The position numbers and the translations under genes are program-made. From positions 183,465 through 247,464 of the forward strand of contig CAVVCH010000053.1 in the NCBI GenBank assembly GCA_963746605.1: a stretch of DNA of 64,000 nucleotides, written 5' to 3'. How positions within the stretch are numbered: the stretch's first letter is position 1; the number at the start of each line of letters is the position of its first letter. The notes under the pieces were generated by a model. That model was not told where the DNA came from and searched no databases. It saw only the letters and a list, made by a program, of their open reading frames with translations. Shown here one piece after another: positions 54,128 through 64,000 of the stretch. Origin of the DNA: an uncultured delta proteobacterium (GTDB lineage: Bacteria > Desulfobacterota > RBG-13-43-22).

Positions 54128-54523
54128 ATGCCGATCAGCCGGCCGAAACAGCAGGAGTTGGAAGAGCGGTTGCAGGCCCTGGGAATTCGACGGGAGGACG
54201 TGCTCGAACAGTTTGTCCGTGCCTCCGGGCCGGGTGGGCAGAAGGTCAACAAGACCTCCAGCGCGGTCTACCTTAAACACCTGCCCAGCGGTATTGAAGT
54301 AAAGGCACAGAAAGACCGATCGCAGGGGATCAACCGTTTCCTGGCCTGGCGGCTTTTGGCCGATAAAGTGGAGGCCCATCTAACCGGTAAAGACCCAAAG
54401 GCGGCGGAGCTTGATCGCTTCCGGAAACAGAAACAGCGGCGGCAGCGAAAGACTCGGGGGAAGGAGAAGGGAGATGGAAGAGGGAAGAGGGAAGCAAAAC
54501 ATAAAGGAGAGGGGCATGAATAA
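54128..54523 (+). CDS. arfB: peptidyl-tRNA hydrolase ArfB-like (RF-1 domain protein)
   Basis: GGQ motif in [15 protein letters not shown]. Basic C-terminal tail. Confidence 0.8.
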
Positions 54524-55128: not shown

Positions 55129-55491
55129 GTGATTATCATTAGGAGTAATGAAATGAGAAGAATGATCAGACGCCCAACGCACCCCGGAATTATCATAAAG
55201 GAAGATTATCTTTTGCCTTTGACCGTAACCATAACGGATATGGCTGATACGCTCGGTGTTTCCAGGAAAACATTGTCTAAAATAATCAATGAAAGAGGCG
55301 CCATAACGCCTGATATGGCTTTGCGATTATCCCGGGCCTTTGGCACCACTCCTGATTTTTGGCTAACTTTGCAGAAAAACTATGATTTATGGCAGGCCGA
55401 GACTGCATCAACGGACTGGCAAAAGGTGAAACCGTTCCCCCGTCGTATCCTCCATCATAATTCATCGCCTTACAATGAACGAGGCGTTTAA
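55129..55491 (+). CDS. higA: HigA-family antitoxin (XRE-type HTH), with no adjacent toxin
   Basis: HTH segment MADTLGVSRKTLSKIINERGAITPDMALRLSRAFGTTPDFWLTLQ. Likely start is the Met at 55153. Confidence 0.75.
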   Translation: MIIIRSNEMRRMIRRPTHPGIIIKEDYLLPLTVTITDMADTLGVSRKTLSKIINERGAITPDMALRLSRAFGTTPDFWLTLQKNYDLWQAETASTDWQKVKPFPRRILHHNSSPYNERGV

Positions 55492-57130: not shown

Positions 57131-57424
57131 GTGAATGAAATGCCTTTAATCAAAGTTAAAAAGAATTTTCAGATTACTATACCTACCGCTCTAAGAAAGG
57201 CTCTAAAAATTGCTGTTGGCGATTATTTGGAGGTTGAAAGACAAGATTGCGAGTTGATCTTAAAGCCGGTCAAGCTGGTTCATCCCGACCAGGCTTATTT
57301 TTTCACTAAAGAGTGGCAGGAGTGTGAAGCGCGGGCGGACGAGGCAATTGCCAAGGGCGAGGTGTTAGGGCCGTTTGACGACCTCAAGAAAGGCCTCAAA
57401 GCCCTGAAGACCGCTAAAATATGA
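57131..57424 (+). CDS. AbrB/MazE/SpoVT-family antitoxin
   Basis: Looped-hinge helix motif (IKVKKNFQITIPTALRKALKIAVGDYLEV). Overlaps the toxin gene start by 4 nt. Confidence 0.75.
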   Translation: MNEMPLIKVKKNFQITIPTALRKALKIAVGDYLEVERQDCELILKPVKLVHPDQAYFFTKEWQECEARADEAIAKGEVLGPFDDLKKGLKALKTAKI

Positions 57425-57678
57425 AACTGGCCTTTACCAAACACTTTGTCCGGGATTATCGGAAGCTACTCCCCGAAATCCAAAAAACCGTGGACAAACA
57501 GCTCGAATTACTATTATCAAGTCCCCAGCACCCCTCTTTGAATTTCAAGAAAATGCAGGACCCACGTAATATTTGGGAATGCCGGGTCACCGCTGCCTAT
57601 CGCTTTACCCTTCAAATTGAAAATGAGGTCTACTTTTTGAGAAAAGTAGGCACGCATGACATTTTGAATCATCCCTGA
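57421..57678 (+). CDS. RelE/ParE-family toxin
   Basis: 85 aa. FTKHFVRDYRKL...WECRV...YRFTLQIENEVYFLRKVGTHD fits the RelE/YoeB fold pattern. Confidence 0.8.
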   Translation: MKLAFTKHFVRDYRKLLPEIQKTVDKQLELLLSSPQHPSLNFKKMQDPRNIWECRVTAAYRFTLQIENEVYFLRKVGTHDILNHP

Positions 57679-58957: not shown

Positions 58958-59353
58958 CTATTTTATCCAGTTTGTCAACTTGAGTCCGTCGATTCTCTGA
59001 AAATGCATCTCGTTGTTGGTTACCAAAGTTAAGTTGTGGGTTAGGGCGCAAGCGGCAATCATCAAGTCAAAATCATCCAGACGGGTGCCCTTGATTTCCA
59101 GTTGGGCTTTGAGCCGGCCGAAGATTTCGGCTGTCTCCGTCCCCAGGGGGATGACTTCCAGAGTCTCTTCGATCTTTTTTACCTTGGCCAGGTTACCGGT
59201 AACTTGTTGCGATTTATAGGCGCCGTAATAAAGCTCCAGGCAGGTTACGATGCTGATCTGCAGCGGATCATTCAGGTGACGCCTCAAATTTTCCTGGAGA
59301 ACGGGATGCCCTTTCAAGGAATAAATGATGATATCCGTATCCAGTAGATACAT
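58958..59353 (-). CDS. vapC: VapC-family PIN-domain toxin
   Basis: MYLLDTDIIIY...IVTCLELYYG...D acidic PIN residues. 131 aa. Confidence 0.85.
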   Translation of the reverse strand: MYLLDTDIIIYSLKGHPVLQENLRRHLNDPLQISIVTCLELYYGAYKSQQVTGNLAKVKKIEETLEVIPLGTETAEIFGRLKAQLEIKGTRLDDFDLMIAACALTHNLTLVTNNEMHFQRIDGLKLTNWIK

Positions 59354-59625: not shown

Positions 59626-59650
59626 GAGGGGAAACCTCCTGGTTAATCAT

Positions 59651-62600
59651 CATGAAAAAAGATACCATCTTCATGATCCATGTCAAGGACAAATTTTTTA
59701 ACCTCCGTTCTGATTGGGATGATATAAGTATAAAAAACATCCGAAGAAAGAACAACCGAGAGGTGAGTTTTACTCTCGAGGAATCGGGTATGGCCGGGCA
59801 AAAATATATCTTGCTGCTCAATGAATGCCTTAAAAAGGCCCTGCCGTCGCTGGGCGCCAGGGAAAAAGAAAGGCTGACGGAAAAACTGGAGTTCCTGCGG
59901 GCCGGATTGTGGGACGCTGGACTGCGGGTCAAGAAGCTGAAAGGCAGCTCGGGGAGGGTCGTTTTTGAGGCGCGGTTTTCCCGGTCGGACCGGATGCTGT
60001 TCACCCTGGGCCGTAAGGGTTCCCGGACCGCCGTCTATCTCTGGGGGCTGATCGGCCACGACGAAGTCAACCGAACAGCCCGGCGGTTCCTGCCTGAAAA
60101 CGCCCCGTTTCTGGATTTTGTCCCGGAAAGCCAGGAAGACTTCTCGGAAGTCATCCTGGAGGAATTGCCCGCCGTGGTCTACAGCCAGGAGACCATCGAA
60201 GCGCAGGTGCCGGACGACTATGGGCCCCAGCGGTGGCTGGTACTGAACGAGGAGGAATGGGAGCGGCTTCGCAGAGCAGGGAAACCGGATGACCTGGAGC
60301 TGTTTCTTTATTTGACCGAAGAGCAGGGCCGGGTCCTGGAAGCCTCCCCGCCGGTCCTTATTTCGGGGACCGCTGGAAGCGGCAAGACCACCCTGGCCGT
60401 CTATTATCTGCTCAAACCGGAGTATGCCGGACAGCGGAAACTGTTCTTGACCTATAATCCTTTCCTGAGGGATTTCAGCCGGCGCCTCTATGACGGGCTC
60501 ACCGCGCGGACCGGCTTGGAGGACTCCGACTTACGACCGGACTTCTACGTTTTCCGGGAACTGCTGCGGGACCTGCTGGGCCCGGCGATTGGGTCATTCC
60601 CCCCGGACCGGGAAGTCCGGCTGCGGGAATTCGAGGCCCTCTTCCGTAATCACCGGTTGTACGGCCGGTACGATGCCGAACTCGTCTGGGAGGAAGTCCG
60701 ATCCATTATCAAGGGGGCCAAACCGGTACTTCGGCTGGAACGATTTAAAAGTCTTTCCCAGGCCTATCTTCAGGGACCTCTCCCACGGGACCGGGTGTTG
60801 GAGTTAAAGGAAGGTCTGCTCGGATTGGTCAACCTGGAGACGGCCTCCAAAATCCAGGTTTTTTTGCAAAGCAAGACCGGATTCGCCGGCCTGGAAGGGC
60901 TGGCCCGCAGCCTGACTACCGAAGAAAGCCTGTGGCGGAAAGAACAGGGGCTGGCCTTGCAGGAGATATTGCGGATTTTGGAGAAAAAATCCAGAGGGCT
61001 CGCCGACCCCCTCCTGACCTATCCGGAATATGTTCGGTTAGGGCAGAAACGGGCTCCCAATTTTGTATATGAACGCAGGGAACTCTATGACATCGCCGCC
61101 TATTACCAGGGCAAGCTGGAGGAACAGGGGCTGTGGGATGAAATCGACCTCTGCCGCCGGGTCCTGGACCGGTTGGGACAGGGGACCGATTCCCGGACGT
61201 GCTATGATCTGGTGGTCTGCGACGAAGTCCAGGACTTCGCTGACGTCCAACTGGCCTTGATTTTCCGCCTGGCCGGTTTTCCGGAAAACGTGGTTCTGGC
61301 CGGAGATACCAAACAGATCATCAATCCCAGCGGCTTTCGCTGGGAGGAGGTGCGCAACAAATTTTTCGAGCGCGGAATCCAGGTCCCCCGGGTGCACTCC
61401 CTGCGGATCAACTTTCGATGTGTGGGCAACGTGGTCAAGCTGGCCAACGCCCTGCTGGACCTCAAGCAGCGGCTGATCGGGTTAACCGGCTCGGAAATCA
61501 GGGAGGAGTGGAAATTCAATGGAAGACCTCCTTTCCTGCTGACCGGACTGGAGGAACGGGAAATCATGTCCCAACTGCGGATGCGGGCCGCCGGACAGGT
61601 CATTTTGGTCCGAGGCCGGGAAGAGCAGGCTCGGCTGAAACAGGCTCTGGGAACAGAGCTGATTTTCACCATCCAGGAGGCCAAAGGACTGGAATTCGAT
61701 ACCGTCCTGGTCTGGAAGTTTTCCGTCGATTCGAAAACCGCCGCCCTTTGGCGCCGCTTTCGCCAGGGGGGAGACCTGGAGCGAACCCGCCGGCCCCACC
61801 TGCGCCATGAGATTAATTTGCTCTACGTAGCCATTACCCGGGCCCGGAACACCCTCATCCTGTATGATCCGGGTGCGGAGATCTGGGAGCTGCCCGAATT
61901 GGTGGAATTCCTGTTCCGGACGTCCGACCCAGGAGCTCTGCCTAGGCTTTGGCACCGGGTCTCCTCACCGGAGGAATGGGCCGATCAGGGAGATTACTTC
62001 CTCGCTCGTGAATATTACCCGGCGGCCCTGGAATGTTATAAAAACGCCGGGGACCCGGACCGGGCGGAAATCGCCCAGGCCTTTGTTTTCGAACAGCAAA
62101 AAAAGTTCCGGGAAGCCGGCTCCCTTTTCGAGAAGCACGGCAATTGGCCCCGGGCCGCTGCCTGCTATGAGCGTTCAGGGTTGTGGCAGCAGGCCCTGCA
62201 AATCTGGGAAAAATTGAAAGACCGGGAGAGGGCGGCCCTGTGCCGGATCGCGCTGTACGAGCGGCGGGGCGACTATGAACTGGCTGCGGAGGAATGGCTC
62301 CGAAGGAAGGAGGTCGTCAAGGCCCTGGAGAATTGGCGGAAGGCCGGGAATCATCAACGCCGGGGCGAATACCTGGCCGCCCAAAAAAGGCTCCCGGAGG
62401 CGGCGGAGGCCTTCGTGGCCGGGCGGCTGTACGACCAGGCCGCGGTTCTTTTTAAAAAGTTGAAAAAGTTCGATCGGGCGGCGGACCTTTTTTTTCAGGC
62501 CGGCAACTGGGCCGAGGCCGCCGTCCTGTACAAACGGTTAAAAAACCCGGTTCGTTTGCTGGAGTGCTACGTCAAGGGCGGGGACGATTACCAGGCGGGG

Positions 62601-64000
62601 CTTTTATATGAGAAGGGCGAGGATTTGGCCGCGGCCATGGAGGCCTTCACCCGATTTGCCCGAACCGGTGAGGAGCAGAGCGCCCTATTAAACGAGGAAA
62701 TGAATCGGGCTGTTCTTAAAAACAGCCTGCTAAAAGCGGCCGTCCGTTCGTTTGCCCTGGGGCAGTACCGGGAATCGGCCGATTTTTTTCTTAAAAAAGG
62801 GTATTACAATCTGGCCCTGCCCCAGTACCAGGCCCTGGGGGATCATGAAAAAGCCGCCGGCTGTTTTTATAGACTGAAGGATTACTATCAGGCCGCCCTG
62901 GAAATTGAGCAAAGTCAGCTTCCGGATAAATGGGAACGGGCCGCCGAACTGCTTTCCTTCCATCTTGGCGAAGGCCGGCGGGAAGCCCTGGCGGAACTGA
63001 AATTGCTCCAGGAAGGAGAAAAATTTTTAAAGGAAGGCGCCCCGGACCGGGCCCTGGTCCGTTTCAAGACCGTCAATGCCCCGGACCTGGTACGGGAGGC
63101 CTACCGGAAAACCGGGCGGGACGAGGAGGCCCTGGATTATTATTTGAGGGGTAACCGTTTGGAAGAGGCTGGGCAATACGTAAATGAGGTCGTCGCCCTG
63201 AAAATTACGCCGGCCTTTTTACAGACCGTTCTGCATAAATATCTGGAAACGGACGGTTATTATCGTCTGCGGACCCAGGCCCAGGTTTTTTTGGCCGAAC
63301 TCCTGGGCCGGCTGCTGGAGCAGGGGGACAAGGAACAGTGGCGGCCCGGCGTGGACCAATTCATCTCATCGATCCCCTTTTGGGGGTCAAACCCGCCCGG
63401 TCCGGTTTTAAATTTCCTGCTCCAAAGCCGGTATTATAACGGTATTTTTGAAGTGGTCCGGGAAGGGACCCTTTTTGCCAAATCCATTTCCCCGAATTCA
63501 AAAAAATTCATCGCCGAACTTAAACGGCTGGCCACCCTGGAAAAAGATCCGACGCTCCTGGCCTGTCATCAGTTTTATAAAGACAAGGACGGATTCGAAA
63601 ACAGTCTCGACCGCCTCGAGTTGACCGGTTGGAATTATAAGCTCTTCGGTGCCAGCCCGAGACGTTATCTCGAGGCCGTTGAATTCCTGTTGGGGGAACG
63701 GAAAACCGAAGAGGCCGTTTACCTGGCCCGGCGGCACCATAATCTCCACCTGGCGGGCCGTATCCATGAAGAGGCGGGGTTCCATTCGGAAGCGGGCCGG
63801 GCCTTTCGCGACGGCGGTCATTACCAGGACGCCCTCCGCTGCTTTAAATTGGCCGGAGACGAACCGGGGCAGGCCCGGGTCTATGAACGGATGGGTCTCC
63901 AGGAAGAGGCTATGGGTATCTGGAAAAAACGGGGCAACCAGAAGGAGGTGACCCGATTGCAGAGGAAGGTGGATAAGGGGAAAACAGCGGGGTCCCAATT
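59651..64000 (+). CDS. giant multidomain protein (over 1450 aa, 3' end outside the window): RelE/ParE-like N-terminal segment, SF1 UvrD-like helicase core, long TPR-like repeat array
   Basis: Uninterrupted frame from the ATG at 59651 to the window end, absent from the ORF table because it has no stop. Walker A SGTAGSGKTT (about 60367-60393). Motif II VVCDEVQDF (61215-61240). GDTKQ. Motif V EAKGLEFDTV (61678-61710). Motif VI LLYVAITRARNT (61824-61847). From about 61960 on, more than 20 helical repeats of about 34 aa (for example GNWAEAAVLYKRLKNPVRLLECYVKGGDDYQAGLLYEKGEDLAAAMEAF). Confidence 0.75.

Follow-up and report, generated by a model that had tools for sequence, protein, structure and literature searches.

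Fusions of a superfamily 1 (SF1) helicase with a RelE-like domain have been described for the CoCoNuT systems, in which CnuH (Type II/III-A), encoded in McrBC-type operons, is a UPF1-like SF1 helicase that also bears a RelE-like 'RTL' domain; this domain has no detectable sequence conservation with characterised RelE-family toxins (PMC11090510). CnuH is the closest described architecture to the product of the giant gene considered here, which lies on the plus strand at the end of a 64,000-nucleotide stretch (the window; positions 183,465 to 247,464 of contig CAVVCH010000053.1, assembly GCA_963746605.1) from an uncultured delta proteobacterium. The preferred, though tentative, reading of this protein (~1414 amino acids, aa) is a stand-alone, sliding-clamp-recruited helicase–ribonuclease (RNase) acting on DNA-associated RNA. 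In both CnuH and the giant protein, an RNase toxin-like domain of RelE/colicin-D fold precedes an SF1 helicase motor, and in both this domain was detected by structure, not by sequence. CnuH is UPF1-like and carries an OB fold and coiled coils, whereas the giant protein is of the SF1A type, stands alone and has an alpha-solenoid and a clamp motif. Membership in CoCoNuT CnuH was rejected, as the motor folds as SF1A and no McrBC-type neighbour was found among the immediate neighbours.

A second design for comparison is DinG. B. subtilis DinG, an exo(ribo)nuclease–helicase, removes R-loops at forks, and the E. coli protein contains QLDLF, a predicted clamp-binding pentapeptide (PMC12525004). The likeness of DinG to the giant protein, the plan of coupling a nuclease at the N-terminus with a helicase for work on R-loops at forks, is an analogy of design only: DinG belongs to the SF2 XPD family of helicases, has a DEDD exonuclease and shares no homology with the giant protein. 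The beta-clamp-binding consensus is QL[S/D]LF, more generally QxxLF, and PolC carries QLSLF at its C-terminus (PMC12309361).

The N-domain of the giant protein shares fold and topology with RelE, YoeB, HigB and YafQ and with Cami1 (CARF–RelE), an example of a RelE fold acting as the effector part within a larger, regulated protein. Unlike the free toxins, it is fused within ~1400 aa and has no cognate antitoxin gene. The gene does not qualify as a type II toxin–antitoxin (TA) system: 80+ loci show no conserved neighbour that could be an adjacent co-oriented antitoxin, and the vapBC pair upstream is a separate module. The motor shares motif set and fold with UvrD, PcrA, Rep and HelD, which are its top structural matches; as in HelD, the first half of the helicase in the model of residues 1-745 contains an all-helical insertion, and a large 2B domain is missing. 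These helicases differ from the giant protein in having neither a RelE-fold N-domain nor a 660-aa solenoid.

Reading frame and domains of the giant protein

The giant plus-strand open reading frame (ORF) noticed in the first-pass annotation is a real gene, and its start is ATG 59790. The frame given there, read from 59651, holds dozens of stops, but translation of the window revealed a stop-free plus frame at 59628-63998 (1457 codons; chance of such a run ~4e-23 for the window's base composition) with its first ATG at 59652. As had been supposed, the ORF is absent from the program-made list because ORFs running off the window end go unlisted. The true start is placed at ATG 59790 because nearly all of >100 full-length homologues begin there (M-x-x-x-x-Y-I-L-L-L-N), tblastn alignments to the 83%-identical loci begin there as well, and AGGAAnCGGnnATG (ribosome-binding site, RBS, and start) is invariant in the window and loci L086, L001 and L003. 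ATG 59652 was rejected as the start: its 46-codon extension is not conserved, and L086 has ATG-TAA at the equivalent position. All residue numbers are counted from ATG 59790. A 93%-identical relative (P0001) runs 11 residues beyond the window end (…GSQ, continued by LTLFEDREEKL), and the window gene is therefore nearly complete at ~1414 aa. In three loci (L073, L043, L078), the gene is split over 2 or 3 consecutive ORFs, which could be due to frameshifts in long-read assemblies of metagenome-assembled genomes or to true pseudogenes.

The RelE/ParE-like N-terminus, proposed from motif similarity, was borne out at the level of the fold. Structure models were predicted for residues 1-106 and 1-745. 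The AlphaFold2 model of the N-domain (28-sequence alignment; predicted local distance difference test, pLDDT, 80.8) has the topology beta1-alpha1-alpha2-beta2-beta3-beta4-beta5-alpha3, and the top 34 Foldseek matches in the PDB are all RelE-superfamily toxins, including aRelE (1wmi; E 2e-5, template-modelling score, TM, 0.76), YoeB, YafQ, HigB and Cami1, with the mRNA-interferase branch outscoring ParE. A RelE/ParE-superfamily fold of the N-domain is supported by this model, and membership of the toxin superfamily holds at the fold level, through topology and likeness to solved toxins.

Structure was needed for this identification because sequence methods mostly failed. Pfam Gp49 was the only curated match (E 0.06, in 4 of 28 N-domain members), a PDB profile search with the N-domain found no toxin, and hhalign of the N-domain profile against the single RelE-like ORF of the window gave E 0.067 only. 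In a profile–profile comparison with stand-alone toxins, 66 columns aligned at E 3.8e-5 (register KK…FEAR…R..FTL…W.GHDE); the target was a small alignment of ~83-101-aa toxin ORFs (57421-57678 of the window included) together with E. coli RelE and YoeB. The JGI name of one member is 'mRNA-degrading endonuclease RelE of RelBE toxin-antitoxin system'.

The mean pairwise identity of the N-domain is 0.58 vs 0.60 for the helicase core, which shows it, by this measure, to be as conserved as the motor and under strong selection. K48, E60, R62, R68 and H90 show no variation across 68 sequences, and K49 hardly any; throughout all alignments of the ~1410-aa family, E60, R62, R68 and H90 stay invariant, as does K48 in alignments A1, A2 and A5, and K49 in A1, A2 and A4 and nearly in A5. 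In ungapped comparison with E. coli RelE and YoeB, R68 stands at what we take to be RelE R61/YoeB R65 and H90 at RelE R81/YoeB H83. The invariant residues would thereby fall where the catalytic residues of RelE/YoeB lie.

Another RelE-like sequence is present in the window. An AbrB/MazE-type antitoxin gene (57131-57424, plus strand) overlaps an 85-aa ORF (57421-57678, plus strand) without a Pfam match, which groups with stand-alone RelE-like toxins by profile comparison. The ORF aligns in register with the N-domain of the giant gene (KK…W/FE.R…R..FTL…GTHD) and is therefore a free-standing cousin of the fused domain, ~2 kilobases (kb) upstream of it.

The N-domain is followed by an acidic conserved linker (mean pairwise identity 0.52), which is structured in the 1-745 model (pLDDT 77-93, with defined strands and helices), and then by the motor. 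The claim of a complete SF1 UvrD-like helicase holds. All motifs quoted in the first-pass annotation are present (GTAGSGKT at 193-200, DEVQD at 478-482, GDTKQ at 505-509, EAKGLEFD at 630-637, YVAITRAR at 679-686), and the residues of motifs I-VI are invariant across the family alignments. Pfam scores exceed the cut-offs for UvrD-helicase (40.7 bits vs 23), UvrD_C (33.7 vs 25.6) and UvrD_C_2 (34 vs 27.4). The best helicase folds found by Foldseek in the PDB are HelD (the top single match), AddA, UvrD, PcrA, Rep, FBH1 and AdnB, while Upf1 and IGHMBP2 rank only 39th-46th, and the motor is therefore assigned to SF1A; UvrD/Rep/PcrA-like membership within it agrees with motifs I-VI, the Pfam gathering scores and the fold. 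The all-helical insertion occupies aa 255-465, and a large 2B domain is lacking, since motifs IV and V are only ~90 residues apart. Orthology to UvrD, PcrA, Rep, RecB or HelD was ruled out by NCBIfam equivalog scores far under the cut-offs (uvrD 38.9 vs 1144, pcrA 35.9 vs 911, rep 16.5 vs 951, recB 28.1 vs 696, HelD 13.9 vs 419). The AlphaFold2 model of residues 1-745 has pLDDT 87 and a predicted TM score (pTM) of 0.88, which suggests that N-domain and helicase form a rigid assembly.

The C-terminal half is a long alpha-helical array, as had been noticed, but not one of 34-aa TPR repeats. Over this solenoid (aa 725-1385, ~660 aa), the autocorrelation has maxima at lags 13 (z 8.3) and 26 (z 5.7) and no peak at 34. 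The array consists of ~13-residue helix units (26-aa hairpins) of the form G-[DN]-[WY]-x-x-A-A-x-x-[YWF]-x-[KR]-x. Pfam Clathrin matches it with 35.4 bits against a cut-off of 29.6, whereas TPR_12 scores 20.5 vs 30.1, and TPR_2 and TPR_7 are sub-threshold as well; the 34-aa TPR repeats were ruled out by the 13/26 period together with these scores. Searching the PDB with the family profile retrieved IFT144 (8.7e-15), an IFT-A 'WD40 repeat protein' chain (8hme_E, 2.3e-10) and IFT122 (4.2e-9), as well as WDR19 and IFT172, and designed CTPRs more weakly (2e-6). By its sequence periodicity and profile matches, the solenoid is assigned to the clathrin-heavy-chain/IFT-type short-helix TPR-like class, with membership at the level of the Pfam clan; 'TPR-like' is valid only at this level, because the period and the Clathrin and IFT matches beat the TPR models. 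Its identity drops toward the C-terminus (0.43, then 0.32, then 0.25). The best PDB sequence matches of the solenoid are eukaryotic intraflagellar-transport proteins, and the IFT/clathrin match could reflect either common descent with solenoids of the protocoatomer type or just a likeness in periodicity and composition.

The protein ends in a Lys-rich tail, which in most relatives carries a pentapeptide that the first-pass annotation had overlooked. QxxLF lies within the last 12 aa of 82 of the 115 full-length relatives and is exactly C-terminal in 69, against a background of 0.0033 per 12-aa window. The narrower form Q[LM]xLF is found in 49 of the same 115, with QLSLF in P0002-P0005 and QLTLF in P0001. 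The tail of most relatives matches the sliding-clamp docking motif, which on sequence grounds points to DNA and the replisome and not to a ribosome-directed toxin. Four variant proteins of 1660-1900 aa (P0202, P0207, P0211, P0249) have their RelE-like domain preceded by 50-280 additional residues and end in poly-Lys/Arg tails instead of QxxLF.

Family, variants and paralogues

A word-index search retrieved 408 homologues, mostly of ~1410 aa, which are 40-93% identical to the query and cover 96-97% of it. The gene had been described as uncalled; in many other genomes it is called and annotated, public pipelines naming it 'UvrD-helicase domain-containing protein' or 'TPR repeat protein'. The three-part architecture had been taken as undescribed, and indeed no paper describing the fusion was found: the literature yielded no description of a RelE+UvrD+TPR-type fusion or of TRANK1-like bacterial helicases matching the family. 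The family is conserved and uncharacterised. Among the matches listed, carriers belong mainly to Spirochaetota and also to Desulfobacterota, Marinimicrobia, Acidobacteriota (Aminicenantes, Holophagae), Ignavibacteria and KSB1; they include the cultured Rectinema subterraneum and Acanthopleuribacter pedis.

In all seven variant members scanned, the UvrD helicase directly follows the N-domain, while the C-terminal part varies, being clathrin-type/TPR, Sel1 or TPR+LRR or showing no detectable repeats. Of 72,556 plasmids, 3 carry distant variants that share the N-domain (Crinalium pCRI9333.06, Euhalothece pEu1 and a Paraclostridium plasmid). All three adjoin parA/parB; one is near DUF262/DUF3696 genes, and another adjoins a NERD-UvrD gene. 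On pEu1 (L084, 7926-17527), the gene immediately after the variant encodes a NERD+UvrD helicase; three small kinase-like genes come next and then another UvrD-like helicase, and this cluster looks like an accessory or defence region. No family copy was found in the IMG/VR scan or among 50,697 phage genomes.

A similar helicase core (query aa ~400-730, 28-30% identity) is fused to ankyrin repeats on Thermus and Polymorphobacter plasmids and also occurs as a stand-alone 'UvrD-helicase domain-containing protein' on ~100 Shigella plasmids.

Two copies of the gene are present in large Spirochaetia genomes: L044 and L054 on OZ244929.1, and L029 and L072 on CBDBOG010000004.1 (22 kb and ~160 kb apart). 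L054 and L072, from different genomes, are 79% identical, above the 66% of L044 and L054 within one genome; two paralogue lineages are therefore maintained.

Possible functions

The helicase–RNase reading is favoured because of the RelE fold, the intact SF1A motor, the solenoid, the clamp-motif tail and the rigid N-domain/helicase assembly. The ordinary chromosomal neighbours, the native GC, the scarcity of tRNA genes nearby, the absence of copies from the phage and IMG/VR collections scanned and the analogy with DinG also speak for it. The tail would bind beta clamps loaded on DNA, either at forks or on DNA that has just been replicated. Like UvrD, PcrA, Rep and HelD, the motor could translocate on nucleic acid and clear away obstacles of RNA or protein, and the RelE-fold domain would cut, or at least grip, the exposed RNA, which might be a nascent transcript, the RNA of an R-loop or the mRNA on a coupled ribosome. 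The solenoid could be a scaffold or a partner-recognition or sensing arm, and the acidic linker may restrain the RNase, like an antitoxin in cis.

Several observations weigh against this reading. Canonical RelE toxins act in the ribosomal A site, not on DNA-bound RNA, and curated RelE/ParE models of Pfam have no significant match in the N-domain of the window protein or in 28 N-domains. In the window, only the Q of the clamp motif (63996-63998) is visible; the rest lies beyond its end and is taken from relatives at 83-93% identity. The tail of 33 of the 115 full-length relatives is without QxxLF, and the motif is absent in 51 of 51 sister-subfamily proteins checked and in 3 of 3 plasmid variants. 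The gene is rare and patchy, being carried by at least 114 of 185,579 GTDB species representatives, and an exhaustive hidden Markov model search with the N-domain found only 195 clusters (50% identity) among 1.84 billion, nearly all of them long proteins or fragments. Some genomes carry two copies (66% identity in the L044/L054 pair compared). Such rarity, patchiness and paralogues are unusual for a core maintenance factor.

A DNA-tethered helicase–RNase is nevertheless more likely than a proven anti-phage system. Its purpose could be the resolution of replication–transcription and R-loop conflicts or action on replicating foreign DNA, and the evidence leans slightly to genome maintenance. RelE-family toxins are the classic example of ribosome-dependent mRNA cutting, as UvrD-family motors are of clearing obstacles from DNA; a conserved RelE/UvrD fusion with a clamp-docking tail would link translation-type RNases to replication. 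In a bolder version, to be regarded with considerable doubt, a RelE-fold ribonuclease would have moved off the ribosome and been wired to a UvrD-type motor and the sliding clamp, with the acidic linker as a built-in antitoxin. The result would be a replication-coupled RNA-cutting machine, serving as a resolver of R-loops and transcription conflicts or as an immune sensor firing on replicating foreign DNA; in either role it would be the first clamp-tethered RelE-family enzyme. The family offers a candidate resolver of replication–transcription conflicts in poorly studied anaerobes or, alternatively, a candidate immune system made of one protein. The constant RelE-like+UvrD core with a differing C-terminal repeat arm (seven variants) provides a recognition rule for a small superfamily, and two cultured hosts, named above, are available.

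The first alternative is a single-gene anti-phage or anti-plasmid (abortive-infection) system, in which the solenoid would sense an invader component, the helicase would transduce the signal or engage invader nucleic acid, and the RelE-like effector would shut down translation. This role, suggested in the first-pass annotation, is regarded as rather unlikely and is not the best-supported reading. A toxin-type domain is found in Cami1 and CnuH as well, and the patchy spread over several phyla at 40-50% identity would fit defence, as would paralogues inside one genome; however, the conservation is very high, the length is fixed across phyla, and the GC is native. The constant RelE-like+UvrD core with swapped C-terminal repeats (CHCR/TPR, Sel1, LRR, none) and the decay of conservation along the solenoid are typical of immune sensors. 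The clamp motif could also target replicating invader DNA. Of the plasmid variants, those near DUF262/DUF3696 and beside NERD-UvrD favour a defence role, but the gene contexts (five annotated with Pfam and three from the variant subfamily) are mostly metabolic, defence or mobile-element genes were not clearly over-represented in the neighbour scans, and tRNA genes seldom lie close by. TA modules are close by in the window, but this setting is common only to the closest relative. Finally, the RelE-like domain appears docked rigidly on a 1400-aa protein (pTM 0.88), which would make entry into the ribosomal A site hard.

Gabija GajB, Nhi, AbiO and RTasHel share the UvrD-like core with the giant protein, but their PADLOC matches (E 1e-14 to 1e-5) are partial, mostly ~65-90 residues and at the longest ~220 (short GajB, AbiO and Nhi models), and lie in the helicase core only. 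The PADLOC check proposed earlier thus produced no model covering the whole protein. The giant gene has no GajA or other partner and lacks the nuclease domain of those systems; Gabija membership was rejected on the partial GajB matches, the lack of a recurrent neighbour and the lack of GajA. Avs/STAND sensors resemble the giant protein in a long C-terminal helical arm varying between subfamilies and in an N-terminal toxin-type domain, but the NTPase of the giant protein is an SF1 helicase and not a NACHT/NB-ARC STAND module, and STAND/Avs membership was rejected with only sub-threshold P-loop matches (nSTAND3 14 vs 27.2, AAA_16 21.3 vs 32.6).

The RelE-fold domain could instead be a non-nuclease binding module, either ParE-like and directed to gyrase or topoisomerase or an adaptor for nucleic acid or protein, which would make the protein a clamp-associated helicase scaffold for DNA repair or recombination. 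The failure of curated RelE RNase models speaks for this alternative, UvrD-type folds are DNA enzymes, and the clamp motif fits DNA too; the RelE-like domain of CnuH is likewise without sequence conservation with characterised RelE toxins. Since the mRNA-interferase branch outscores ParE, and the invariant E60, R62, R68 and H90 appear, by ungapped comparison with the two E. coli toxins, to occupy RelE/YoeB catalytic positions, this alternative is improbable. Least probable by far is a plasmid or mobile-element maintenance gene (addiction or exclusion) domesticated on chromosomes, which would suit the parA/parB partition genes beside all three plasmid variants and the classic role of RelE/ParE folds as plasmid-stabilisation toxins, but not the near absence of the gene from the plasmids searched, nor a ~1410-aa family that is chromosomal, of native GC and usually without flanking mobility genes.

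Coordinates and genomic neighbourhood

Table 1. Features of the giant gene and of its upstream neighbours in the window
Feature	Position	Strand	Basis or remark
HTH_3 protein ('orphan higA')	55129-55491	+	Pfam
MGMT/Ogt-type methyltransferase, 203 aa	55475-56086	+	Pfam; start overlapped 17 nt by HTH_3 gene
AbrB/MazE antitoxin and 85-aa ORF	57131-57678	+	Pfam (AbrB/MazE only)
Divergent AT-rich intergenic region, vapB to giant gene	59626..59789	.	Sequence inspection
Sigma70-like TTGACA-16-TATCTT site	59686->59659	minus	Placed to drive vapBC
RBS GAGGAA of giant gene	59778-59783	+	Sequence inspection
Coding sequence of giant gene, 3'-partial	59790..64000	+	1403 codons inside window; ~11 more expected
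RelE/YoeB-fold domain, aa 1-98	59790..60083	+	AlphaFold2 and Foldseek
Acidic conserved structured linker, aa 99-190 (PxNAPF … YGPQKW …)	60084..60359	+	Alignment and model
UvrD/PcrA/HelD-like SF1A helicase core, aa 191-720	60360..61949	+	Pfam, motifs, model, Foldseek
Walker A	60366-60389	+	Helicase motif
DEVQD	61221-61235	+	Helicase motif
GDTKQ	61302-61316	+	Helicase motif
NFRC	61410-61421	+	Helicase motif
EAKGLEFD	61677-61700	+	Helicase motif
YVAITRAR	61824-61847	+	Helicase motif
Alpha-solenoid, aa 725-1385 (~660 aa)	61962..63944	+	Autocorrelation, Pfam, PDB profile search
Lys-rich tail (EVTRLQRKVDKGKTAGSQ)	63945..63998	+	Ends on Q of the family's C-terminal QxxLF

The TA modules noted upstream of the gene were largely recovered by Pfam: the HTH_3 protein, RHH+PemK/MazF, AbrB/MazE and RHH_5+PIN (vapBC, the divergent pair upstream) were recognised, but the partner of AbrB/MazE has no Pfam match. 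The notion of a TA island as a defence neighbourhood did not survive comparison. The modules are interleaved with ordinary genes (RF-1-domain protein, MGMT, HtrA protease), and the arrangement recurs only in the closest syntenic relative, L086 (84% identical), in which LigB, EamA, TetR and an RND pump lie downstream of the gene. The 83%-identical L001 and L003 have a different setting: enoyl-CoA hydratase genes precede the gene, and barstar/barnase and a transposase come after it in L001. The 'TA island' thus belongs to the locality and does not characterise the family, since L086 alone shares it.

Whether orthologues are sporadic and associated with islands had been proposed as a check. Their spread is patchy, but they have no island signature, and no neighbour is conserved in 80+ loci. 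All-against-all BLAST clustering of six-frame ORFs from 82 loci found no conserved operon partner, and the most recurrent flank cluster after removal of shadow ORFs is a generic ABC ATPase. Defence context was judged from immediate neighbours. The 127 immediate neighbours contain 129 different Pfam families, none occurring more than 3 times and those listed being mostly metabolic or transport families, and in the PADLOC scan of the same genes each model listed matched only one or two. tRNA genes occur within 10 kb in 2 of 45 loci. The GC content of the gene is 0.58 vs 0.554 in the rest of the window; the gene is without compositional anomaly, its neighbours are ordinary chromosomal genes, and there is no clear link with defence genes.

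Three minor observations concern the neighbouring genes. The HTH_3 gene may be a co-transcribed regulator of the methyltransferase gene it overlaps rather than a leftover antitoxin. The 131-aa protein encoded at 54128-54523 (plus strand) has an RF-1 (GGQ) domain only, and in size and motif it resembles an ArfB-like peptidyl-tRNA hydrolase of the ribosome-rescue type. The window vapC (58958-59353) encodes a full 131-aa PIN protein, whereas the gene at the vapC position of L086 (9289-9474) is called at 61 aa beside an intact vapB of 90 aa, which may represent toxin decay in one lineage.

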